A DNA stretch of 32,000 nucleotides. Origin: Candidatus Electrothrix sp. GW3-4 (GTDB taxonomy: Bacteria; Desulfobacterota; Desulfobulbia; Desulfobulbales; Desulfobulbaceae). The translations under genes and the position numbers were made by a program. The notes under the pieces are model-generated. The model was not told the DNA's origin. It worked only from the letters and a program-made list of their open reading frames with translations, and did not search any database. The DNA is taken from contig NZ_CP147990.1 of the NCBI RefSeq assembly GCF_037902255.1, positions 3,420,001 to 3,452,000 on the forward strand, in the 5' to 3' direction. This document shows positions 1,970-32,000 of this stretch, one piece after another (positions within the stretch are counted from its first letter, which is position 1; each line of letters opens with the position of its first letter).

Positions 1970-2695
1970 ATGGTCAGCAAAAAAATTTCATATCTGTGTA
2001 TCGCACTGACAGCATTATTGATAGGCAATGAATCTGCCTGTGCTGAAACTGCTCAACAGAATATCATCAGTAACGCCTATGATGAAAGCGCAATGAGCAG
2101 TCTTTTATTGGCCGCTGGGATGTATGGCGGCCTCAAGAATGAAAGCTCACCAGGAGTCAGCCTGTCCCTTGGTCAATCCAAAGACATGATGAAGGGTTTA
2201 TTTACCGATCAAGGCCAATTTGACGGTCAGGATATCACCCTTTCCTATGAGGGATCAGCAGGTCGTCTCGGTTTTTCCGCAGGGTACATATACACCACTG
2301 GGGAGAAAGACCAGAACGGTGGCTCTGTCCTGCTTGGTCTGGACAATTACAGCAAAAACACCTTGAACAATATCCAGGAAAGACCTTGGTACGTAACCCT
2401 TGATCTTTCACGCTCGTTTCAGCTCAGCAATAACTTGGCCGTTGGCGTTGGCTCAAAAACCGTACTGCTCGCGAATACCCTTAACGAAGAAGACAGCACC
2501 CATAAAGCGGTTTCCATGTCACTGAATCTTCCTGTCTCCTACAAAGGATTCCTGACAGTTACGCCAGAGTTCCAATGGTCCCGTGCTCTTCTTACTGACG
2601 GAGAGCCCTCCACCAATGACATTGACAACCTCTTTGCCCCGGAGGACGGACAAAATACCTTCTATGGAGGTATGTCCATCAGCTTCTCCTATTAA
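1970..2695 (+). CDS. Putative outer-membrane beta-barrel protein (family not recognised)
   Basis: It has a signal peptide (KKISYLCIALTALLIGNESACA) and a Gly/Ser/Thr/Asn-rich sequence with alternating hydrophobic residues. The C-terminus GGMSISFSY ends in an aromatic residue, as in many OM beta-barrels. Confidence 0.6.
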   Translation: MVSKKISYLCIALTALLIGNESACAETAQQNIISNAYDESAMSSLLLAAGMYGGLKNESSPGVSLSLGQSKDMMKGLFTDQGQFDGQDITLSYEGSAGRLGFSAGYIYTTGEKDQNGGSVLLGLDNYSKNTLNNIQERPWYVTLDLSRSFQLSNNLAVGVGSKTVLLANTLNEEDSTHKAVSMSLNLPVSYKGFLTVTPEFQWSRALLTDGEPSTNDIDNLFAPEDGQNTFYGGMSISFSY

Positions 2696-9180: not shown

Positions 9181-11796
9181 TCATAGCTCTGCAATAATCT
9201 TATTAATCATCGTGTAATCCGTCTTCCCGGTTCCTAGAAGCGGTATTTCCTCAACCCGGCGGACAAGTCGAATATTATGCAGAGGCGACAGACCTGCATC
9301 CCGGACCGCCTGATTCGCCTCTTCCCTATCCGTTTCCAAGACTGTGAGCAAAATCAACTCGGGATGATGTTCATCAGCAGTGGCTGCAACGGCCAAAACC
9401 GGTCCTTCTTCTGTTGAATAATGGGCCTCTAAAACCTGTTCAATCGCAGGCAGCGAGATCATCTCGCCCCCCATCTTAACAAAACGTTTCAGGCGCCCTG
9501 CAAAGACAAGCACCCCACCCTGCTCAAACATCAGATCTCCGCTATCATACCAAGATTTCCCGTCAAAGTCGACAAAGGGTGAGGGTGCATCACCGAGATA
9601 GCCGGAAAAAACATTAGGGCCACGAAGCAGCAGGCGACCGTTTTTTCCGGTAGGCACTGGTTCCCTGGTCTCCAGGTCCAAGAGGACATACTCCATGGAG
9701 TCCAATATCCTTCCGACGCTACCGGCCTGCGGGGCCTCAGGAGAATTCACTGTAACCACAGGGGAGCATTCAGTCACACCGTAGCCCTCACAAAGCACCG
9801 CTTGCGGACATTGCTTTTCCAGGGCAGCAAAGACATGATCCGGGCATTTTTCAGCTCCAGAGAAAATCAGACGTAACGAATGGAGCAGATCCGGCTTCCA
9901 TGCCCGAAGGATTCCGTGCAGAAAAGTAGGGGTGGTAACCAAGGTGGTTGCCCCGTAAGCCCCTATCATGCGGGCAAGCTGGGCCCCCTCAGTTGGATTG
10001 GGCCAGTACACGGTGCGCAGACCGGTACAAAGGGGAAGGATAACAGTACCAGCCAGACCGAGAGAGTGAAATACCGGTAGAATACCCAACAGACGATCAT
10101 TGGAGGACAAAGATAATACTTGCGTAAAATCGTGGGCATTCGCCAAGAAATTGGCGTGCGTCAGAGGGACGGCTTTCGGTTGGGCTTCTGAACCGGAGGT
10201 AAAGAGGACAGCTGCGTTTTCGGCAATCTCTGCCTCTCGCAATTCCTTCCATGACAGCCTGCTTTTCAGCAGGACCGTGATTTTACGGCCCACACTCATC
10301 CCGGCAGCGAGTTCTTCCAGATACACCCAGGATACGCCGACCTGATCCAACGCAACCCCGCGCTGCTGTAATCTTCCGGTCAAGGCCTTGGCCGTGATCA
10401 CCCTCTCCGCACCGACACTTCGCAGGGAGTAGCGCATATTGGCCGTGCCGCTGGTCCAGTTAACCATCACCGGCTCTTTACCGCTGAACATCACAGCCAA
10501 CCAGCTGACAACCGCACCGACCGAAGCTGGCATCATGATGCCGACCCTCTTTTCGGGCATTTTTCGGATCTCAGGCAACAGGGCATAGACAGCCATAATC
10601 AGCTGCCGCCAGGTTTTATCGCCGCTGATCTGGTCGGAAAGGATAACCTGATCCAGATTTTGCCGGGCCTGATCAAGAAAGAGTTCAGCAATGGTTGCTC
10701 CCTGGGGAAGAATCAGTGTTCGCTCCTCAATCTGTTCAAACCACTTGGCGGAAACCGGTTTGAGCGGCACGCCGGGCAAAACCGGCATGATCCCCCCTGC
10801 GGCCAGGATACAGTCAGAAACCGTCTGGAGCACTTCCAGATTTTCCGTGGCCACACCGAACTCCTGATGCAGCCAGGAACCGAACTCAGCCAGGACCAGG
10901 CTGTCCATACCAAGGTCCGTGGCCAGATGATCGCCTTCCTCAATTTCCTCCACCCCGGCAAGTTCAGTCAGCTGGGCCAGCACCAAACTTTGAATACTCT
11001 CTGAAATTCTGTCGGTATCTCGATTGATAAATTCCGGTCGCGCCTCATCATGATAAATTGGTTTATAGCCCTGCCACCAGTATTGAGGAATTTCTGTATT
11101 CCTGTCCGGCCCGACATTATAAAACTCCTCAAGGTAGTGATTTATCTCTCTCCTGTCCCTGCTCCTCGGAAAATCATCCGGCTCAACGAGCTCTATATGT
11201 ACAGGTCTCCGTGGCATAAACAGGAGACCATTAACGAGCACCCTGCCAAGCAGTTTCCCCACATCTCCAAATAAGGTAGGAAGACCACAGGCCCTGCTAA
11301 ACCGGCTCCCCCACAGCCCACGAATGCGTATGAGAACGATTCGGGCTTCTGGAACGGCATGTACAACAGAAACGGCCCCGCTATTGGCACCGATGACCTC
11401 CAAATGGCCTCGCGATATGCGCCCGGCAGGATACATGAGCACATTCTCCCCGCGCTTCAAACTTGCCACAATTTCCTCAATCCCGGCAAAGACCTGTTCT
11501 TTGGTATCTTGGCTACTGACATTCAAGTCCGGGATAAAGATGGCGTTCACCATATCCATGAAGGATTTAGCCAGAGGATGGTCGGCTTGCTTCTCGTCAA
11601 CCAGCGGCTTTGGAGCAAAGGGATTATAGAGCAGACTCATGACAATGACCGGATCAATCAAGGCCTGATGATTGGGGAGGAACAGAAGAGGACGGTTATC
11701 TTCAGTGCGGATTTTCAGCTCTTTGAGCCCATTCACCGTGATACGATAGCGAACACGGAGCATGAGTGCAAAGACGAAACTGATCAGCTTATTCAT
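9181..11796 (-). CDS. aas: Aas-like tri-domain enzyme: lysophospholipid acyltransferase (PlsC-type) - acyl carrier domain - acyl-ACP/AMP-dependent synthetase
   Basis: The acyltransferase HX4D motif is NHQALID. The phosphopantetheine-attachment motif is DLGMDSLVLAEF (about nt 10798-11010). The AMP-binding motif LFTSGSEAQPKAV is of the kind seen in E. coli Aas (TSGSEGxPKGV), with later YGVTE and GDL motifs. I prefer ATG 11796 (AAGGTG 5 nt upstream) over the ORF-track ATG 11832. Confidence 0.85.
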   Translation of the reverse strand: MNKLISFVFALMLRVRYRITVNGLKELKIRTEDNRPLLFLPNHQALIDPVIVMSLLYNPFAPKPLVDEKQADHPLAKSFMDMVNAIFIPDLNVSSQDTKEQVFAGIEEIVASLKRGENVLMYPAGRISRGHLEVIGANSGAVSVVHAVPEARIVLIRIRGLWGSRFSRACGLPTLFGDVGKLLGRVLVNGLLFMPRRPVHIELVEPDDFPRSRDRREINHYLEEFYNVGPDRNTEIPQYWWQGYKPIYHDEARPEFINRDTDRISESIQSLVLAQLTELAGVEEIEEGDHLATDLGMDSLVLAEFGSWLHQEFGVATENLEVLQTVSDCILAAGGIMPVLPGVPLKPVSAKWFEQIEERTLILPQGATIAELFLDQARQNLDQVILSDQISGDKTWRQLIMAVYALLPEIRKMPEKRVGIMMPASVGAVVSWLAVMFSGKEPVMVNWTSGTANMRYSLRSVGAERVITAKALTGRLQQRGVALDQVGVSWVYLEELAAGMSVGRKITVLLKSRLSWKELREAEIAENAAVLFTSGSEAQPKAVPLTHANFLANAHDFTQVLSLSSNDRLLGILPVFHSLGLAGTVILPLCTGLRTVYWPNPTEGAQLARMIGAYGATTLVTTPTFLHGILRAWKPDLLHSLRLIFSGAEKCPDHVFAALEKQCPQAVLCEGYGVTECSPVVTVNSPEAPQAGSVGRILDSMEYVLLDLETREPVPTGKNGRLLLRGPNVFSGYLGDAPSPFVDFDGKSWYDSGDLMFEQGGVLVFAGRLKRFVKMGGEMISLPAIEQVLEAHYSTEEGPVLAVAATADEHHPELILLTVLETDREEANQAVRDAGLSPLHNIRLVRRVEEIPLLGTGKTDYTMINKIIAEL

Positions 11797-24084: not shown

Positions 24085-26550
24085 ATGGGAAAAACACTCA
24101 TCATCGCAGAGAAACCCAGCGTGGCCGCTGACATCGTCAAGGCCCTGCCTGGCAACTTCAAAAAATCCAAAACCCATTTCGAGGGTGGCGATTATATCGT
24201 CTCCTATGCGGTCGGTCATCTTGTCTCCATTGGATTCCCCGAAGAGATTGACCCAAAATTTCAAAAATGGACCTTGGACAACCTGCCCATTCTGCCGGAA
24301 GAGTTTCCCCTGAGCGTCCTGTCCAATACCAAGACCCAGTATAACGCCCTGAGTAAGTTGATTCGGCGCAGGGACGTGAATATCATTGTCAACGGCTGTG
24401 ACGCCGGTCGTGAGGGTGAACTCATCTTTAAATACATCCTCAAACACGCCTATACTCGATCTGTGGCCGGAAAATCTATCCGCAGACTCTGGCTCCAGTC
24501 CATGACCTTAGACGCCATTAGGACAGGATTACAAAATCTGCGTGAGAATGAGGAGATGCTGAGCCTTGAAGATGCCGCTCTCTGTCGATCTGAAGCGGAC
24601 TGGCTCATCGGCATCAACGCAACCCGGGCCCTGACCTGCTATAACTCGCGCCACGGTGGATTCCGTAAGACCCCCTGCGGACGGGTCCAGACCCCAACCC
24701 TGTCCCTGCTGGTCAAACGGGAAGCGGACCGGCGTGCCTTTATCCCGACCGATTATTGGGAGCTGCATGCTGATTTCCTTTGCGAAGATGCTGTCTACCA
24801 AGGGATATGGATTGACACGGAGTTTAAAAAAGACCCGGACAATCCCCATGCCAACAAAAAACGCATCTGGGAAGAAACGCAGGCGGCCGAGATCGCAAAA
24901 AAATGCCTCGCTAAAGAGGCAACTGTTGAGGAGAACCATAAAAATTCCAACCAGGCTCCTCCTCAGCTCTACGACCTCACCTCCTTGCAACGTGAAGCCA
25001 ACTCCAGGTTCGGTTTTTCCGCCAAGAACACCTTGGGTCTTGCCCAGGCCCTGTATGAGCGCCATAAGCTGATCACCTATCCCAGAACAGACAGCCGCTG
25101 CCTACCTGAAGATTACTTGCAGTCTGTTCAAGCGGTCCTGGAACGGCAGCAAGGATGGCAATACGGCACATTTGCCACAGAGGCCCTGAGCAAGGACTAT
25201 CTGCAAAAGAACCAAAAGAATAAACGGCTTTTTAATAATAAAAAGATCAGTGATCATTTTGCGATCATCCCCACCTCCGGCCTTCCCGGCACTCTGAGCG
25301 AACCGGAAATGAAGGTCTACCAGATGATCGTGCAGCGCTTCCTTGCTATTCTTTTCCCGGCAGCGGTCTTTCATAACACCCGCCGTCTTTCCATTGTAGA
25401 GCAGGAGACCTTTCTCACAGAAGGCAAGATTCTGGTGGAACCGGGCTGGAAGGCTGTGTATGGGGCAAAAGCCGGGGCCGGTGACGCAAGCACCCTTGTG
25501 GCCCTGCCCGAAGGGAAGCCCGTACTCTGCAAGGAAATAGAGCAGAAAAAGCTTGTCACCAAACCGCCAGCTCGTTTTTCCGAGGCCACCCTGCTCTCAG
25601 CTATGGAGCATTCCGGAAAGCTGGTAGATGACGAGGAACTGGCCGAGGCCATGAAGGAGCGCGGCCTGGGCACCCCGGCCACCCGGGCCGCTATTATTGA
25701 AAAGCTGCTCAATGAAAAATACGTCGTCCGGGAACAAAAAGAACTCATTCCAACGGGTAAGGCCTTTGAGCTGCTCTCTCTGCTGGAAGCGCGGGACATT
25801 GATGTCTTGGCCTCGCCGGAACTGACTGGCGAATGGGAGTACAAGCTCAATCAGATCCTGCGGGGGCAAATGACCCGGGAGCAATTCATGCGGGAGATTC
25901 GGGAGCAGACCGCCAAGATTGTCGAGCAGGTAAAAACCGGCGAGGAAGCGGTTCGCAAGGAGGCCCCCTTCTCTCCGGTTGACGGGGTAAAATTCTTTGA
26001 GAACGCAACCGCCTACCAATCAGAAGACGGCAAGCTGATGATCCGCAAAATTCTTGGGGGCAGGATCATGGAAGACGAGGAGATCGTCCGCCTCATTCAG
26101 GGAGAAACCGTCGGGCCCTATACGGACTTTCGCTCCAAAAAAGGAAAACCTTTTACCGCCTCTGTCTCCATCAAGGACTCCAAGGTCTCTTTTCAATTTG
26201 CCGACTCCACCGATGGCCTTGATATGGAGGCCATTAAACAGCAAGACCCCATCGGCATCTCACCAGTGGACGAGACGAGGGTCTTTGAGACTCCTATGGC
26301 CTATATGTCCGAATCTGCCCTGGAGGGAGATCGGAAAAAAGGCCTGCGCATAGGAAAAATTATCCTGGAACGTACCATCACTCGGGACAATATTGCCCAA
26401 CTCTTGAGCAAGGGAAAGACCGAGTTGATCAAGGGATTTATCTCCAAAAGAAAACGACCCTTTGACGCCTATCTCTGCATGGACAAGAAGGGAAAGATCA
26501 CCTTTGAATTTCCACCGAGAAAACCACGGGCAACAAAAGGGAAAAGTTGA
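24085..26550 (+). CDS. topB: DNA topoisomerase III with duplicated C-terminal repeat domain
   Basis: The Toprim start is KTLIIAEKPSVAADI. The active-site region is LYERHKLITYPRTDS. The C-terminus carries two related modules (GPYTDFRSKKGKPFTASVSIKDSKVSFQF and KGFISKRKRPFDAYLCMDKKGKITFEF). Confidence 0.92.
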   Translation: MGKTLIIAEKPSVAADIVKALPGNFKKSKTHFEGGDYIVSYAVGHLVSIGFPEEIDPKFQKWTLDNLPILPEEFPLSVLSNTKTQYNALSKLIRRRDVNIIVNGCDAGREGELIFKYILKHAYTRSVAGKSIRRLWLQSMTLDAIRTGLQNLRENEEMLSLEDAALCRSEADWLIGINATRALTCYNSRHGGFRKTPCGRVQTPTLSLLVKREADRRAFIPTDYWELHADFLCEDAVYQGIWIDTEFKKDPDNPHANKKRIWEETQAAEIAKKCLAKEATVEENHKNSNQAPPQLYDLTSLQREANSRFGFSAKNTLGLAQALYERHKLITYPRTDSRCLPEDYLQSVQAVLERQQGWQYGTFATEALSKDYLQKNQKNKRLFNNKKISDHFAIIPTSGLPGTLSEPEMKVYQMIVQRFLAILFPAAVFHNTRRLSIVEQETFLTEGKILVEPGWKAVYGAKAGAGDASTLVALPEGKPVLCKEIEQKKLVTKPPARFSEATLLSAMEHSGKLVDDEELAEAMKERGLGTPATRAAIIEKLLNEKYVVREQKELIPTGKAFELLSLLEARDIDVLASPELTGEWEYKLNQILRGQMTREQFMREIREQTAKIVEQVKTGEEAVRKEAPFSPVDGVKFFENATAYQSEDGKLMIRKILGGRIMEDEEIVRLIQGETVGPYTDFRSKKGKPFTASVSIKDSKVSFQFADSTDGLDMEAIKQQDPIGISPVDETRVFETPMAYMSESALEGDRKKGLRIGKIILERTITRDNIAQLLSKGKTELIKGFISKRKRPFDAYLCMDKKGKITFEFPPRKPRATKGKS

Positions 26551-26595
26551 GTCCTCCTGCCAGAGGCCTCCTTTTAACCTCACAAACTTATTTTT

Positions 26596-26679
26596 ACATG
26601 AAAGTAGCGGGTGAGGCATTCAAGTCGCTCGACCAACTTTCATTTTTTATTGTCCCAGCCCGCTGGGATGGAAGTTTAT
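26596..26679 (+). repeat. Copy 1 of an ~85-nt two-hairpin repeat element
   Basis: The outer stem pairs ATGAAAGT (26598-26605) with ACTTTCAT (26636-26643) and encloses an inner hairpin that begins in GCGGGTGA. TTTTTTATTGTCCC follows. The second hairpin is TCCCAG-cccg-CTGGGA (26653-26668), and the tail is TGGAAGTTTATA. Confidence 0.75.
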
Positions 26680-26762
26680 ATGAAAGTGTCGGGTGATTCC
26701 GTCACCTGACCATTTTTCATCCTTTGTTGTCCCGACCGCTGGGCCGGGATAGGAGTTATATC
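26680..26762 (+). repeat. Copy 2 of the two-hairpin repeat element (head-to-tail with copy 1; its tail supplies the rsfS Shine-Dalgarno)
   Basis: The outer stem pairs ATGAAA (26680-26685) with TTTCAT (26715-26720). The inner hairpin is CGGGTGA-ttccg-TCACCTG (26690-26708). CCTTTGTTGTCCC follows. The second hairpin spans 26730-26749, and the tail is TAGGAGTTATAT. The period relative to copy 1 is 82 nt. Confidence 0.75.
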
Positions 26763-26767
26763 ATAAG

Positions 26768-27169
26768 ATGCGACAGCTGAAAAAAAAACACCGCGAACGG
26801 ACCCCGCTGGAACTGGCCGAAATCTGCGCCCGCACGGCCCTGGACACTAAGGCAGAAGACCTGATTATCCTGGACGTTCACACCACCTCCTCCTTTACTG
26901 ATTATTTCGTCATTATGAGTGGACGATCCAGCCGCCATGTTCAGGGACTGGCCGAGGCCATTGAGGAAGAACTGCGCTCTAAACGGGTAACCAGTACACA
27001 CTCAGAGGGATTAAAAGAGGGCATGTGGGTGCTCCTGGATTTCGGTGATATCGTGGCCCATATCTTCTATAAGGATCAACGGGAGTTTTATGATCTGGAA
27101 GGGCTCTGGCATGATGCCCCTCGAGTGGCTCTGAAAGAACTGGGTATTGAGGAACAGGAGGAAGGGTGA
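26768..27169 (+). CDS. rsfS: Ribosome silencing factor RsfS (Iojap family)
   Basis: Typical RsfS core: AEDLIILDV...[26 protein letters not shown]...[28 protein letters not shown]. Confidence 0.9.
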
Positions 27170-28728
27170 TGGCAGACAACAGACCGGTGGTCTTGGCAAT
27201 TCTGGACGGATGGGGCATTGCCCCGGCATCAGCAACCAATGCGGTTTCCCTGGCCCGCACCCCGAATATGGACCGCTGGCGTGCAGATTATCCTTCTACC
27301 ACCTTGGTTGCCCATAACGGCCAGGTCGGTCTACCTGAGGGCCAGATGGGCAACTCCGAGGTCGGGCATCTCAATATCGGTTCCGGGCGAATCGTCTATC
27401 AGGACTACACCCGGATCAACCAAGCTGTGGAACAGGGCGAGTTTGCCCAGAATCCGGTCTTAATCAAGGTCATGGAGCAGGTTAAAGCCGCAGGCAGCCG
27501 CATCCACTTCTGCGGTCTGCTCTCGGACGGCGGAGTCCACTCCCACCTCAAGCACTTAGAGGCTCTGTTGGCAATGGCAGGGGCCAAAGGGCTTGACGCC
27601 AAGGTACATTGCTTTATGGACGGTCGGGATACTGCACCTTCCAGCGGAGCAGGCTATATGAAAGAGCTGCTTGCCGCCATGGAAAGCATCGGCTGTGGTC
27701 AGGTAGCAACGGTCTCCGGCCGCTACTGGGCTATGGATCGCGATACCCGCTGGGACCGAGTGGAAAAGGCCTGGCAGGCTCTGGTCAACGGGCAAGGACT
27801 GACGGCGGAAGATCCTTTGCAGGCGGTGAAGGATGCCTATGCGCGGGAGGAAACCGATGAGTTCATCAAGCCCACAGTCCTTTTGGACAGCAATGGAGAA
27901 CCAGCGGGCAGGGTCAGCGACGGTGATGCCGTTATCTTTTTCAATTTTCGGGCTGATCGAGTGCGGGAACTCTGTCATGCCTTTTCCGATGCCGACTTTC
28001 AGGGCTTTGCTGTCAGCAATCGGCCCGAGCTGCTGGACTTGGTCACCATGACCGAATACGAGGCCGACTTTTCCTTTCCCGTCGCCTTTCCTCCGCAGAG
28101 CCTGACCAGCATTCTTGGGGAAGAGGTGAGCAAGGCAGGATTGCACCAGCTGCGCATTGCCGAGACAGAAAAATATGCCCATGTCACCTATTTCTTTAAC
28201 GGCGGGGAAGAGGAACCGTTTCCCGGCGAAGACCGCATCCTCATTGAATCCCCACGGGATGTAGCGACCTATGACCTTAAACCGGCCATGAGCGCGGTGG
28301 AGGTGACCGACCGCCTTCTAACCGCGCTGAAGGAGCAGGCGGCAGCAGGTACGCCCTATGACATGGTGATCCTCAATTTTGCCAACGGTGATATGGTGGG
28401 GCATACCGGCGTCCTGGAGGCGGCTGTGGAGGCCTGCGAAACCGTGGATCGCTGCCTGGGCCGGATTGCTGAACAGCTACAGGCGATGGGTGGCGCCCTG
28501 CTGGTTACGGCGGATCATGGCAATGCCGAGACCATGGTCAATCTGGAGACCGGGCAACCCCATACGGCCCATACCCTGAATCCGGTGCCGCTGATTCTGG
28601 TCAGTGAAGGGCATAAGGGCTGCACCCTGAAGGACGGTGGTGCGCTCAAGGATATTGCTCCTACCCTGATGAGCTTGCTTGGGTTGAAGCAGCCTGTGGA
28701 GATGGAAGGGGAGAGTCTGATTACCTGA
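27169..28728 (+). CDS. gpmI: 2,3-bisphosphoglycerate-independent phosphoglycerate mutase
   Basis: [10 protein letters not shown], the catalytic-Ser region [21 protein letters not shown], and later [10 protein letters not shown] and [11 protein letters not shown] 27169 overlaps the rsfS stop (TGATG). The ORF-track GTG 27166 is one codon upstream. Confidence 0.92.
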
Positions 28729-28744
28729 ATAGAAATATTGATGG

Positions 28745-28771
28745 TTTCGTAAAAAGTCCAATTTTACGAAA
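28745..28771 (+). other. Perfect 10-bp A/T-rich hairpin 17 nt after the gpmI stop
   Basis: TTTCGTAAAA (28745-28754) pairs with TTTTACGAAA (28762-28771) around the loop AGTCCAA. It is followed by AAATCG, so it lacks a U-tract and is not a canonical terminator. Confidence 0.5.
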
Positions 28772-28865
28772 AATCGTATTGTAACCCATTGAGTTGTCGT
28801 TGACAACTTGTCATTTTCTGACTTTTTACCAGGCCATCAATATTAACATCAATACATAAGAGTGA

Positions 28866-29939
28866 ATGGTGTCTTCTGACAAATATAAAAAACTGGCAAG
28901 CAAGTACCAAGTTGAAGATATAACGAGTGCATTGATCCCCGGAGGTCGCCTGTCCAATATTTTGAAACAGTTGGAAGAGGAAAAGCCGATTTCTGATTAC
29001 ACTCTACAGTATTTACGCAGCAAAGAGCTGTTGGCACTCTTTCATTATGCTCATGCAGAAAAAAAAATTATCTTTGCCGATTTTCTGGAGAGTGCAAAAG
29101 CAGAGCAAACCAAACGCCGTTTGGAAGCTGAAGCCAAGGCCGTTAAAGAGCAGGCAGAACAAAAATTGAAAGAGAAGGCCCGATTGGCCAGACTCAAGAC
29201 AGAGCAAGAACAAGCTGCTGCAAAAAAGCGCGCTTTCGACAGTAATCCTAAGAATATAGCCAAGAAGAAACAAGATAGACTGAGACGTAAATACCACCTT
29301 TCTTACTTTATAGAAAGGACTGATTTTCCAAAGCTCATGCAAATTTTGCATCAAGTTGATAACGGAGTGCGCCTATCCGAGGATGACATCATTTGGCTTT
29401 CAACAGAAGAATATGGAGAATATTACACAACAGAACTGAGAGAAGGCCATCACAAAAACGAGGCTGAATTTTATGCCGGTGAATTTAAAAAGCACAAAGA
29501 CCCTTGGGCCGCAGTCAACGCAAGCAGTCACTATCGAAAATGCAATGAAGCTGAAACGGCTGATGCGATGTTACGCACAATTAATATGCTCAATTTAAAA
29601 AATGTCAAATTGAAGTCCGCACTCTGCACAACACATGGAGGAACGAAACGGGATCTAAAAAAATGGGAAGAAGCGTTAGCCTTGGGAGAGCAGGCACACT
29701 TGCTGACCCCGCAGGATTTTCGGCCCTGCACTCTGTTGGGTGCGGTGAATATGGAAATCGGTCATTACGATCTGGGCCAATCCTGGTACAAAAAAGCTGT
29801 CGAACGGGGTTATAGCGAAAGAGCGATGGATAATGAACTGCGAAGTATTTTCATGCGTGCTGAAGAATCTAATAAAGAGAAATTGCGTAGTCATTTGCTC
29901 AATCTGAATCCCTCCCGCTATAGTTGGGCAACTTGTTGA
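28866..29939 (+). CDS. Hypothetical 357-aa protein: N-terminal region, K/E/A-rich coiled coil, C-terminal TPR-like helical repeats
   Basis: The central segment is AEQTKRRLEAEAKAVKEQAEQKLKEKARLARLKTEQEQAAAKKRA. The C-terminal helical repeats are WEEALALGEQAHLLTPQDFRPCTLLGAVNMEIGHYDLGQSWYKKAVERGY. I recognise no catalytic motif. Confidence 0.65.
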   Translation: MVSSDKYKKLASKYQVEDITSALIPGGRLSNILKQLEEEKPISDYTLQYLRSKELLALFHYAHAEKKIIFADFLESAKAEQTKRRLEAEAKAVKEQAEQKLKEKARLARLKTEQEQAAAKKRAFDSNPKNIAKKKQDRLRRKYHLSYFIERTDFPKLMQILHQVDNGVRLSEDDIIWLSTEEYGEYYTTELREGHHKNEAEFYAGEFKKHKDPWAAVNASSHYRKCNEAETADAMLRTINMLNLKNVKLKSALCTTHGGTKRDLKKWEEALALGEQAHLLTPQDFRPCTLLGAVNMEIGHYDLGQSWYKKAVERGYSERAMDNELRSIFMRAEESNKEKLRSHLLNLNPSRYSWATC

Positions 29940-29988
29940 TTGCATAACAGGAAATAGCCCTCAAAAATCTATAAGTAGGTCACCTTGA

Positions 29989-30058
29989 ATAATCGACACT
30001 TCTTATGCTCCAATATGCCGATAAATCAGTTCGGCAGCTAAACTGGAGTGTCGATTAT
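29989..30058 (+). promoter_or_regulatory. Nested inverted repeat in the spacer between the 357-aa gene and the NERD gene
   Basis: The outer 11-bp arms are ATAATCGACAC (29989-29999) and GTGTCGATTAT (30048-30058). The inner hairpin is TGCCGA (30016-30021) / TCGGCA (30031-30036) with a 9-nt loop. Confidence 0.5.
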
Positions 30059-30074
30059 ATTTAGCCGGGTACTT

Positions 30075-30848
30075 ATGAATTTCTCGCCAACCATCTATGA
30101 AGTTTTGAAAACGCTTTGGTGGGTCATCCCAATGATGCTGTTCCTCGCCTTCCTGGGGTCTCCCAAGTTCAAAGGGATATTTGGGGAAGCCTTAGTCAAG
30201 GTTGCGGCATGGTTACGCCTTCCTGCCAAAGTCTACCATCCTATCCATAATGTGACGATACCGACCCTGGACGGCACAACGCAGATTGACCATATCTTTG
30301 TTTCTTGTTTTGGCATCTTCGTCGTAGAAACGAAGAACATGAAGGGTTGGATCTTTGGCGGAGAGAATCAAAAGCAGTGGACACAGCGAATATTCAAAAA
30401 ATCATCTCCATTTCAAAACCCACTGCACCAAAACTACAAGCATGTCAAAGCACTGGAGACCTTACTTGCTGTCCCTCCAGAAACGTTACATTCAGTGATC
30501 GTTTTTATGGGTGACAGTACGTTTAAGTCGCCCATGCCAGCCAACGTCACTCGTGGCGGTGACTATATCACATACATTAAATCCTTCCGCAACCCCGTGC
30601 TGTCGGAAGCTCAAGTGCAGAAAGCGATAGCACAGATCCAATCTGGTCGACTTACACCGTCATGGGAGACAGATCGCCAGCATGTTCACCAGCTCAAAAA
30701 TCGCGCCGATCCGAATGCGGAGAGAAAATGCCCAAAATGTGGCAAACCTATGGTATTGCGTACTGCAAAACGAGGCGCAAATGCCGGTAATCAATTCTGG
30801 GGTTGCTCCGCATATCCCAAGTGCAGGATGGTGCAAAATATCAACTGA
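30075..30848 (+). CDS. NERD (nuclease-related domain) protein with an N-terminal TM segment and a C-terminal topoisomerase-type C4 zinc ribbon
   Basis: The TM segment is LWWVIPMMLFLAFL. The NERD core is HNVTIPTLDGTTQIDHIFVSCFGIFVVETKNMKGWIFGGENQKQWTQ. The zinc ribbon is KCPKCGKPMVLRTAKRGANAGNQFWGCSAYPKCR. I prefer ATG 30075, because the ORF-track GTG 30048 lies inside the 3' arm of the inverted repeat and GGAG abuts it with no spacing. Confidence 0.8.
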   Translation: MNFSPTIYEVLKTLWWVIPMMLFLAFLGSPKFKGIFGEALVKVAAWLRLPAKVYHPIHNVTIPTLDGTTQIDHIFVSCFGIFVVETKNMKGWIFGGENQKQWTQRIFKKSSPFQNPLHQNYKHVKALETLLAVPPETLHSVIVFMGDSTFKSPMPANVTRGGDYITYIKSFRNPVLSEAQVQKAIAQIQSGRLTPSWETDRQHVHQLKNRADPNAERKCPKCGKPMVLRTAKRGANAGNQFWGCSAYPKCRMVQNIN

Positions 30849-31120
30849 CAGTCTGTTACTGTTGTCTGCCAACGCACTACGAACAGGTTGTCATTGTATT
30901 TGAGACAGGAATTATCATCCTCCATCGCATCCTCAACCACCAGATTCTCCAACAACCACATCCGACTCTATCTCAACCGCACATACAAGCTCAGAACACA
31001 ACTCACATGTACGGTCAAAACTGGACAATCTCCAGCATCACGCGCCCTCTCCCCTTTTTCTATTGACAAAGAAAAATTTCCTTCTTAATTTAAGAATTTA
31101 TTATCTCACGGTCTTTCCAA

Positions 31121-31209
31121 ACAAACTCCCATCCCGCGCCCTGGGTGCGGGACAACAAAGCATGAAAGTTGATTAACTGACTCCAAGGAGTCACCCGGCA
31201 CTTTCGTAT
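31121..31209 (-). repeat. Copy 3 of the two-hairpin repeat element, inverted relative to copies 1 and 2
   Basis: The reverse complement reads ACGAAAGTGCCGGGTGA...CTTTCATGCTTTGTTGTCCCG...CGGGATGGGAGTTTGT, and all three conserved blocks match copy 2. Read on the + strand, the stems are GAAAGT (31164-31169)/ACTTTC (31200-31205), TGACTC/GAGTCA (31178-31193) and a 9-bp hairpin at 31132-31152. Confidence 0.75.
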
Positions 31210-31337
31210 AAATACTTTTTCATCTTTACAACGCAAGTAACTGATAAGCAGGAAAACAATTCCAACATAGGTTGATAGCCTATATTTTCCCAGGTTCTAA
31301 ACGGTTGTACCTATACACCATATAGGAGGAAACTGAC

Positions 31338-32000
31338 GTGGACCCGAAAAAAAGAGTTTGGTTGTTGATTCTCATCATGTTTCTCCTGGTTATCTCGACC
31401 ACAGTAGTTTCAGTTGGCCTTCTTTATCAAACCAGTATTAAAGAACAAAAAATACGCCTTGCCGAAACAGCAAAGAGCCAGGCACGGCTGATAGAAGCTG
31501 TCGCCAACTTCAATAAGAGCTATAGTAATAATTATTCACCCGGGGCGAGAGAGGCAACTCTCGTTCAAATACGAGAGGCTCACTCCAACTATCAGGGGTT
31601 TGGCGTTACCGGAGAATTCACCCTGGCAGAAAAGAAAAACAAACAAATTATCTTTCTCTTAAGTCACCGTCATTATGATCTTGATAACCCGAAACCTGTT
31701 CCCTGTGACTCTCCTATTGCAGAACCTATGCGTCTTGCGCTCTCCGGCAAGTCTGGAGTTGTCATTGGGCTTGATTATCGAGGAGCAAAGGTCCTTGCAG
31801 CGCACGAACCTGTTGGAGTATTTGGTTTGGGAATTGTTGCAAAAATTGACCTGGCAGAAATCAGAGCACCATTTATTAAAGTGATCAATATTACTGCTAT
31901 TTTCTCTTTTTTTCTCATTACATTAGGCGTAAGTATCTTTCTTAAGTTGACAAACCCTCTCTTGCGCAACCTCAACAATACTATAGAAAAACTCCAAAAA
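31338..32000 (+). CDS. N-terminal part of a membrane sensor protein (TM - Cache-like periplasmic domain - TM - linker), running off the window
   Basis: This ORF is not in the ORF track because it has no stop codon. AGGAGG (31324-31329) lies 8 nt before GTG 31338, and the frame is open for 221 codons to nt 32000. The protein begins VDPKKRVWLLILIMFLLVISTTVVSVGLLYQ. Its periplasmic part (GLDYRGAKVLAAHEPVGVFGLGIVAKIDLAEIRAPF) is Cache-like, and the second TM is AIFSFFLITLGVSIFL. Confidence 0.75.
   Translation, partial: MDPKKRVWLLILIMFLLVISTTVVSVGLLYQTSIKEQKIRLAETAKSQARLIEAVANFNKSYSNNYSPGAREATLVQIREAHSNYQGFGVTGEFTLAEKKNKQIIFLLSHRHYDLDNPKPVPCDSPIAEPMRLALSGKSGVVIGLDYRGAKVLAAHEPVGVFGLGIVAKIDLAEIRAPFIKVINITAIFSFFLITLGVSIFLKLTNPLLRNLNNTIEKLQK

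Follow-up and report, generated by a model that had tools for sequence, protein, structure and literature searches.

The spacer at positions 30,849 to 31,337 of a 32,000-nucleotide (nt) stretch of the Candidatus Electrothrix sp. GW3-4 genome (contig NZ_CP147990.1, positions 3,420,001 to 3,452,000; this whole stretch is referred to as the window) holds one minus-strand copy of a structured repeat, two further copies of which lie in tandem upstream of rsfS, the gene for the ribosome silencing factor. Electrothrix are cable bacteria, which are uncultured, electrically conductive filaments whose genome biology has barely been explored. The repeat belongs to a dispersed family, restricted to some Electrothrix and apparently undescribed, that occupies 15 independent intergenic sites in several Candidatus Electrothrix genomes. 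We consider it slightly better than an even bet, at a probability of about 0.55, that this family is a lineage-restricted, small, non-autonomous mobile repeat whose fold is needed while it is single-stranded, and that the copy in front of rsfS has been co-opted.

The sequence-only reading of this DNA had described the element near 31.1 kb as a third, inverted copy of the tandem pair and had taken the three copies as evidence of a dispersed family; both statements are borne out. When the window was searched, with filters off, using a covariance model (R2) built from the repeat family itself, the minus-strand segment 31121-31207 (copy 3, a complete unit of 87 nt) scored 84.3 bits (E~1e-15). The units of the tandem pair (26598-26760) scored 73.6 bits for copy 1 (26598-26679, plus strand), the upstream unit, and 72.3 bits for copy 2 (26680-26760, plus strand), the orthologous rsfS-leader unit, in which hairpin P2 is 5 nt shorter. 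No further unit above 14 bits was found in the rest of the window. The rsfS gene (26768-27169, plus strand; Pfam RsfS) lies directly 3' of the pair, and its product is 100% identical to RsfS of Ca. Electrothrix sp. GW3-4. The sequence blocks GAAAGTNNCGGGTGA (26600 and 26682 on the plus strand, 31191-31205 on the minus strand) and TTTCATNNTTTNTTGTCCC (26638 and 26715 on the plus strand, 31149-31167 on the minus strand) occur with 0 mismatches only at the three copies, and a third block (GGGAT-GGAG/GAAG-TT) is seen in their alignment. Pairwise identity among the three copies is 69 to 74%, and mean column identity in the three-way alignment is 79%. The geometry is likewise as described, with copies 1 and 2 on the plus strand and copy 3 on the minus strand 4.4 kb away. 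The two hairpins reported for copy 3, TGACTC/GAGTCA and the 9-bp TCCCGCGCC-ctg-GGTGCGGGA (with a G.T pair on the plus strand), are present both in the sequence and in folds, and the G.T or A.C pairs cited at 26691/26707, 26735/26744 and 31138/31146 are likewise correct.

The unit is 82 to 93 nt long (about 85 nt) and contains two hairpins, ordered as a helix P1 that encloses hairpin P2, a U-rich linker, hairpin P3 and a Shine-Dalgarno (SD)-like tail. Behind a leader made of a T-run and ATA, the 5' arm of P1 (ATGAAAGT) is followed by a spacer of 2 nt, by P2 (5' arm CGGGTGAYTC, apex variable), by a spacer of about 4 nt and by the 3' arm of P1 (ACTTTCAT), the P1 helix being AUGAAAGU:ACUUUCAU. The linker (ATTTTGTT), P3 (GTCCC...GGGAT, with a G+C-rich variable apex) and the tail (GGAAG, AGGAG or GGGAG, then TT(T)ATA) complete the unit. 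In an alignment of 22 units with 29 pairs, 91.1% of cells were paired, compared with 85.5 ± 0.6% in shuffles (0 of 500 reached the observed value) and 42 to 55% in slid controls; P1 was paired in 94.9% of cells family-wide. Two-sided, compensatory change was observed at 12 of the 29 pairs, compared with 6.0 ± 1.6 in the shuffles (again reached by 0 of 500). The unit is modular, as the 3' module (linker, P3 and tail) occurs without P1 and P2 in the rsfS leader of E. gigas and at locus L025, 1484-1527 (L numbers denote sampled loci and contigs). The loss of P1 and P2 in E. gigas (L008, 9915-9995) resembles a deletion between the T-run of the leader and that of the linker. A pseudoknot between the tail (GGAG/GGAAG) and the P2 5' arm (ACUCC/AUUCC) was considered and rejected, its association being weak and confounded by orthology. 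It was also observed that, in the frame beginning at the unit ATG, each of the three most variable P2 pairs connects two third positions (e.g., 26690-26708 and 31174-31197) and that P2 compensatory changes at these positions are synonymous on both sides; with so few independent sequences, this may be chance or a trace of coding origin.

The sequence-only reading had held that a functional strand could not be assigned, a view that the family data overturn: they select the sense running from ATGAAAGT to GGAAGTTATA. Minimum free energy (MFE) folds contain 85 G.U pairs in the sense reading versus 25 in the antisense reading, and the sense fold is the more stable in 16 of 18 units (mean MFE, -30.3 versus -25.3 kcal/mol). 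At the base of P3, three consecutive conserved wobbles (U.G in 18, U.G in 16 and G.U in 17 of the 22 units; columns 56/95, 58/94 [U.G] and 59/93) tie the linker to the tail, and the antisense reading turns all three into A.C mismatches. The earlier signals conflicted because copy 3 is the least asymmetric unit (-31.1 versus -30.9 kcal/mol; 6 versus 2 G.U pairs) and because one A.C in its P3 reads as a plus-strand G.T. Sense asymmetry nevertheless persists in units that are anti-oriented to their neighbors, namely copy 3, L023_a and L023_b.

The census comprises about 30 units at the 15 sites, spread over at least seven genomes or metagenome bins of Electrothrix. When one genome per species was scanned with a sequence pattern, the unit turned up in just two further metagenome-assembled genomes (MAGs), both of Electrothrix; each has a single copy at the same place, the spacer between a topoisomerase III-like gene and rsfS. 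A looser pattern applied to metagenomes returned four contigs, all from one sample, with one to three units each. Hidden Markov models, then covariance models, were run on 320 kb of cable-bacterial DNA around orthologues and added three units at L006, two at L019, one at L020, four at L023, two at L024 and two at L025, plus one half unit. The L020 unit (11045-11126) lies in a second region of the window's own genome, L024 and L025 belong to Ca. Electrothrix sp. ATG2, and L003 to L006, L019 and L023 represent three metagenomic Electrothrix. When unit translations were compared, as a proxy, with 5.8 billion predicted proteins, only five spurious open reading frames (ORFs) were recovered, all from Electrothrix (four from named MAGs and one from a JGI metagenome contig). 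No unit was present at the single E. scaldis locus that was sampled, and a model of the 3' module only (R3) gave no extra copies in the E. scaldis, YB6 and Electronema loci. A phage origin was rejected after a viral-contig scan gave 0 hits.

Comparison with Rfam 15 at gathering thresholds gave no family match anywhere in the window. At E<=10 over 26400-31500, only two chance-level hits were obtained, both outside the units: Glutamine at 17 bits (gathering score, 35) and S15 at 15 bits (gathering score, 39.5). A riboswitch or ribozyme was rejected: the only conserved unpaired bases are those of the U-rich linker and the SD-like tail, the internal loop between P1 and P2 is small and variable, and the neighboring genes are unrelated. 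The region upstream of rsfS is not a tandem riboswitch. Literature searches found no such element described for cable bacteria, and the repeats discussed in the closed-genome paper on these organisms are only of the insertion sequence (IS) type and longer than 250 bp.

Sites occupied by the unit differ between closely related species. All three filled sites of L006 are empty in L019, where the flanking protein is 88% identical, and E. scaldis, L019 and L006 have no unit at the L020 site. The rsfS leader contains two units in GW3-4 and one in Rat3, L001 and L002; E. gigas has only the 3' half there, and YB6 and Electronema aureum have none. Copy 1 is only 69% identical to copy 2 and is missing from L001, L002 and L016, the single-unit rsfS leaders of three related species, and is therefore read as a later addition. 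Direct head-to-tail arrays of two to three units, with a period of 82 to 93 nt, occur at 9 of the 15 sites. Tandem neighbors are 69 to 83% identical and are never each other's closest relatives, whereas units at different loci of one genome reach 91 to 94% identity (0.94 for L025_a versus L024_a and 0.92 for L004_a versus L006_b). Because tandem neighbors are less alike than units from different loci, the arrays appear to grow by the arrival of copies from elsewhere and not by local slippage. TTT(T)ATA stands before every array and GTT(T)ATA forms its end, with one shared motif per unit junction. There is no terminal inverted repeat (TIR), as the 5' end (TGAAAGTAGCG) and the reverse-complemented 3' end (ACTTCCATCCC) share only the boundary TATA. 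Empty site B in L019, the only empty site that is reasonably alignable, has a single TTTATA at the matching position; TT(T)ATA borders almost all arrays on both sides, and it might alternatively be part of the unit.

The sequence-only reading had also argued that the placement of copy 3 does not fit a simple 5' untranslated region regulator or a simple terminator. This holds for the family as a whole, whose neighbors are unrelated and whose contexts are co-oriented, anti-oriented, convergent and divergent. Units are co-oriented with flanking same-strand genes at rsfS, L020, L006_a, L006_b, L019_b and L025, and probably at L005 and L024, and are antisense to both neighbors at copy 3 and in the three-unit L023 array; the resulting count for same-strand contexts, about six to seven co-oriented sites versus two anti-oriented, is suggestive only. 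L003 and L006_c lie between convergent genes, and L004, L019_a and the L023 site upstream of a TetR gene lie between divergent ones. Copies on the same contig mostly share orientation (six concordant pairs versus one discordant). In a GC-skew test for replication-linked insertion, the sense strand was the richer in C at 8 of 11 independent loci, a proportion that does not reach significance, and the window holds both orientations. At L004, a degenerate second unit (2306-2373, minus strand) runs straight into the start of a downstream 683-amino-acid (aa) gene, the first codons of which (ATGAAAATAACGG) resemble the head of the unit (ATGAAAGTAGCGG); this gene start may come from, or overlap, the element.

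Copy 2 has orthologues in the rsfS leaders of four species in all (GW3-4, Rat3 and two MAG species), and across these the unit is 87 to 96% identical, compared with 57 to 80% at four-fold degenerate sites of rsfS. For copy 2 against its orthologues, the values are 87 to 90% and 57%, respectively. The substitutions keep pairing (G-C to G.U and G.U to A-U), and in E. gigas, which has lost P1 and P2, the linker, P3 and AGGAG are kept with compensatory changes in P3. On these alignments the rsfS-leader unit is conserved well above synonymous sites, which suggests that it is under purifying selection and has been co-opted into the translation-initiation region of rsfS. Between the AGGAG of the copy 2 tail (26751-26755, plus strand) and the rsfS ATG that follows it there are 12 nt. 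When the rsfS copies are folded, AGGAG pairs with the U-rich linker through A-U and G.U pairs: in the L001 orthologue, UUGUU/AUU is connected to AGGAG by A-U, G.U, A-U and G.U pairs, and the fold of copy 2 is similar but has fewer outer pairs. These models indicate that the co-opted copy probably acts as a hairpin masking AGGAG before rsfS, a proposal on which the 12-nt spacing and the stable upper stem of P3 counsel caution. In Electronema aureum, the topoisomerase-rsfS spacer (L013, 9356-10000; 645 nt) has no element but holds an uncalled ORF, about 140 codons long, that includes hydrophobic stretches and may encode a small, unannotated membrane protein. At L025 (338-352), a two-codon ORF (ATG CTA TGA) begins 5 nt beyond the GGGAG of the last unit, and its stop shares bases with the ATG of cbiC (ATGA); this start-stop overlap could couple cbiC translation to the SD-like tail of the element.

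Taken as a mobile repeat, the element would insert by a copy-and-paste process next to TTATA in AT-rich intergenic DNA, and new units would often land at the TTATA end of an existing unit, generating head-to-tail arrays. Because strand asymmetry and compensatory change are independent of gene orientation, we infer that the fold is required while the element is single-stranded during its own propagation. The likeliest form of this would be single-stranded DNA handled in trans by an HUH/Y1-type enzyme, as for IS200/IS605 derivatives and REP/RAYT; a REP-like role at the level of DNA, as had been suggested earlier, or of single-stranded DNA is possible and forms part of this model. An inserted copy would then be transcribed within the neighboring mRNA, and in the rsfS leader one copy would have been retained by purifying selection, masking AGGAG and perhaps thereby affecting rsfS translation.

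Several observations weigh against this explanation. No transposase or RAYT gene could be linked to the family, whole genomes not having been scanned for one; the 320 kb that was fetched contains no RAYT (TnpA_REP, Y1 HUH), judged from Pfam labels only, and the list of repeated ISs of E. scaldis (IS5, IS1380, ISKra4, IS630 and IS3) includes no IS200/IS605. The hairpin sequences vary, whereas ends recognized by Y1 enzymes are usually conserved within a genome, and, by inspection, the sequences 5' of the hairpins show no complementarity to the TTATA boundary, which the IS608 guide rule would require. Conservation of wobble pairs is a trait of RNA hairpins more than of DNA ones, a point in favor of selection at the RNA level. 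The duplication or targeting of TTATA is read from one alignable empty site, the others being too diverged, and the 12-nt spacing between AGGAG and ATG is long for a functional SD sequence. Finally, the four sampled units of the window genome are only 68 to 74% identical to each other, so that, if the family is mobile, there would have been no recent activity there; this genome looks like an old carrier.

Wobble pairing and the rsfS copy could also be accounted for by a portable cis-regulatory RNA of benefit to the host, in which P3 and the U-rich linker mask the SD-like sequence or stabilize the mRNA, either as a fourU-type, thermometer-like structure or as the site of an RNA-binding regulator (CsrA), and which spread via duplication or recombination and not transposition. 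Such an RNA would be consistent with the conserved U.G, U.G and G.U pairs between the linker and the GGA-containing tail, with the pairing of AGGAG in the rsfS-copy folds, with the conservation of that copy above synonymous sites and the survival of its 3' half in E. gigas, and with the mostly co-oriented placement between same-strand genes. Many units also end about 4 to 32 nt before a start codon (at rsfS, cbiC [L025], L004, L005, L019_b, L020 and L006_b), but this short distance is forced, because the element fills most of a short spacer. We regard this explanation as unlikely, since both copy 3 and the three-unit L023 array run antisense to the genes on either side and yet keep the sense asymmetry, L003 and L006_c lie between convergent genes and have no downstream gene, the neighboring genes are functionally unrelated, and sites are gained and lost between close species. 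CsrA-type GGA sites in particular were rejected, the GGA of the P2 apex being absent from the conserved rsfS copies. Asymmetry that is independent of neighboring genes would be expected of multicopy trans-acting small RNA (sRNA) genes or of a protein-sponge RNA transcribed from its own promoter, with TTTATAT as the -10 box. The conserved AT-rich motif directly 5' of every array and the GGA motifs in each tail, and often in the P2 apex, fit this proposal, and tandem sRNA arrays occur in other bacteria. It is nonetheless very improbable: the flanks upstream of the T-run are unrelated, a start 6 to 8 nt after TTATAT would delete the 5' arm of P1, the helix with the best conservation, P3 is not followed by an intrinsic terminator (tail, GGAAGUUAUAU), and the conserved rsfS copies lack the P2-apex GGA. 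An own promoter and terminator were rejected, as there is no conserved -35 element and the consensus scan for terminator-like sequences flags only the P2 and P3 stems themselves. We find it scarcely credible that each unit encodes a small peptide (MKVAGDSLESPGQLSYFVVP...) from its ATG, with the GGAAG of the preceding unit as SD sequence. GGAAG or GGGAG does lie 4 to 6 nt before the ATG of the next unit, many units have no stop in frame 1, five ORFs of this kind have been annotated by gene callers, and the most variable P2 pairs fall on third codon positions. The synonymous fraction of codon differences is 30% in frame 1 versus 17% and 12% in frames 2 and 3, but 30% about equals the unconstrained expectation. 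Moreover, the 5-nt deletion in the rsfS copies shifts the frame (leaving 9 aa in GW3-4 and 33 aa in L001), L005_a, L005_c and L006_a contain premature stops, copy 3 (ACG) and L023_tetR (ATA) have lost the start codon, loop indels have lengths that are not divisible by three, and array-first units have no SD sequence.

A last alternative places the function in double-stranded DNA, as a nucleoid-, gyrase- or IHF-like binding site or as a recombination substrate through which the copies at 26.6 and 31.1 kb could invert the rsfS-to-NERD segment. The inverted orientation of copies 4.4 kb apart is real, the region after gpmI differs between species, and a short-read contig from a GW3-4 sample stops 39 nt after gpmI. 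In the sequence-only reading, the three copies bracketed rsfS, gpmI, a 357-aa gene and the NERD gene as inverted repeats; for such a bracket as a functional unit we found no evidence, the gene order being the same regardless of copy number. The order and orientation of the topoisomerase gene, rsfS and gpmI are constant in 8 of 8 relatives examined, which have no unit, half a unit, one or two, and only the part after gpmI varies, the 357-aa and NERD genes differing in Rat3, E. gigas and YB6. Identity between the inverted copies is only 70 to 74% (their longest ungapped stretches are about 44 to 64 nt at 73 to 75%), which would make them a poor substrate for homologous recombination, and recognition of double-stranded DNA would not yield wobbles on one strand or compensatory changes. 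We accordingly hold a DNA-level function of this kind to be highly improbable. A composite transposon or invertible segment bounded by the copies was rejected given the fixed synteny and low arm identity. Just after gpmI there is a separate 25-nt inverted repeat (28734-28758 and 28820-28844; 88% complementary, with 61 nt between the arms), and the short-read contig from the same organism (L007) ends inside it, at 28766; this repeat may be a strain-variable junction or another small element.

Copy 3 itself lies between a gene for a NERD/zinc-ribbon protein (30048-30848; Pfam) and a plus-strand gene with a GTG start at 31338, whose product shows no Pfam domain over its first 220 residues, and it is anti-oriented to both of these plus-strand neighbors. 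On the minus strand, the T-run and ATA of the leader (TATTTAT/A), conserved before every array, occupy 31208-31214 directly 5' of the unit. The 5' arm of P1 (ACGAAAGT, 31200-31207) was placed by sequence and family alignments; the start-like ATG of the consensus is here ACG, which breaks the second P1 pair. Fold and alignment define P2 (CGGGTGACTC-CTTG-GAGTCAGTTA, 31174-31197), with a 6-bp Watson-Crick core and two G.U pairs that exist only in the minus-strand reading. The 3' arm of P1 (31162-31169), which has the family sequence given above, is supported by sequence matches and folds, and the U-rich linker (GCTTTGTT, 31154-31161) by its U.G and U-A pairing to the SD-like tail. P3 (GTCCCGCACC-CAG-GGCGCGGGAT, 31131-31153), identified from sequence, fold and family pairing, keeps the conserved closing G.U and has one A.C mismatch, which is G.T on the plus strand. 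The tail (GGGAGTTTGT, 31121-31130) was assigned from the family alignment, and the terminal TTATA of the family is degenerate in this copy. The unit most similar to copy 3, at 80%, belongs to another genome; by these comparisons, copy 3 appears to be an old, diverged insertion in the opposite orientation, and we detected no functional link to copies 1 and 2. An exact-sequence look-up of the NERD protein, aimed at an empty copy 3 site, returned no record. By inspection, a promoter-like sequence (TTGACA-17 nt-TAATTT, 31063-31091) lies upstream of copy 3 and points to the gene at 31338; it was not flagged by the consensus scan, because its second hexamer matches only 3 of 6 positions. If active, it would put the antisense reading of copy 3 into the 5' leader of that gene. 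The weak glutamine-riboswitch-like match adjoining copy 3 (31215-31260; 17.2 bits versus the gathering score of 35; E=5.5) was judged to be chance.

Among known systems, the family is best classed with the structured, interspersed small repeats of bacteria, working like REP, PATE and MIRU elements while being a member of none. As with REP/BIME, RAYT and REPINs, the units are short, abundant, extragenic, hairpin-forming and strand-asymmetric and would be transcribed within mRNAs; as in REP/RAYT, where movement is thought to be single-stranded via an HUH enzyme acting in trans, copies are gained and lost between relatives. In contrast to the 20- to 40-nt REP palindrome, the Electrothrix unit is 82 to 93 nt long, with two different hairpins and an enclosing helix, and its stem sequences vary by compensatory change. 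Neither unit end has GTAG, the units starting with ATGAAAGT after the T-run, and, unlike REPINs or BIMEs, all nine arrays are direct and head to tail, the only inverted pair being that in the window, 4.4 kb apart. With PATEs, which derive from IS200/IS605, the family shares the lack of a TIR and a hairpin near each end: P2 begins about 10 nt inside the left boundary and P3 ends about 10 nt before the right one, with TTATA at both. Its insertion may likewise occur next to a short specific sequence (TTATA), which the 3' end of the element would regenerate. It differs in that the left and right hairpins are unrelated and variable, and no guide-cleavage-site complementarity is evident by inspection. 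Mycobacterial MIRUs, too, have units of 40 to 100 bp that form direct tandem arrays in numerous intergenic spacers, usually oriented with the adjacent genes, with start-like and SD-like motifs at unit junctions; their sequence and host phylum are unrelated, and the Electrothrix unit has a covarying, RNA-type structure. Coupling through a small ORF, as in MIRUs, was not found, frame 1 being interrupted or shifted in many units and copy 3 and the L023 array being anti-oriented.

[quoted passage not shown] The Electrothrix unit differs from these elements in having no TIR, 5' and 3' ends that are not paired to one another, a polar orientation and direct tandem arrays of whole units. A likeness to fourU and ROSE elements is predicted for the rsfS leader, where AGGAG would be paired through A-U and G.U with the UUGUU linker at the weak base of a hairpin near the start codon; in the folds, such pairing of a U-run with an SD sequence is found for the rsfS-leader copies only. 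The Electrothrix element differs in being a dispersed repeat with AGGAG 12 nt from the ATG and a G+C-rich 10-bp upper stem that would not melt in the physiological range. The unit is not an integron attC site: there is no pairing between its 5' and 3' ends, it forms two separate domains, GTTATAT does not conform to GTTRRRY and the 5' end lacks RYYYAAC. Several intergenic spacers of metagenomic Electrothrix contigs (L019, 8113-8132 and 9355-9374; a variant at about 4975-5000 of L006) contain another palindromic repeat (GTAGGGGCACGGCRCGCCGTGCCCCTAC), rich in G+C and unrelated to the family; it looks REP-like, with a GTAG head, and is absent from the window.

The finding corrects the reading of the region upstream of rsfS as a tandem riboswitch even if the family proves to be no more than a decaying repeat. 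As a ready marker, the repeat can serve in strain typing and in accounting for breaks in short-read assemblies. It also provides a natural experiment in how a selfish hairpin element becomes a gene leader, with the rsfS copy as an example. If a mobilizing enzyme were found, the family could represent a new TIR-less, single-strand transposition outside the classical REP/RAYT and IS200/IS605 hosts. A bolder proposal, which we put forward as rather doubtful, is that the unit is a mobile riboregulator, a self-folding module of RNA type that carries a masked ribosome-binding site, spreads without TIRs via a single-stranded intermediate (single-stranded DNA or RNA) and has had one copy domesticated for the control of RsfS. 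Were this true, each insertion would rewire the translation or stability of the gene before which it lands.

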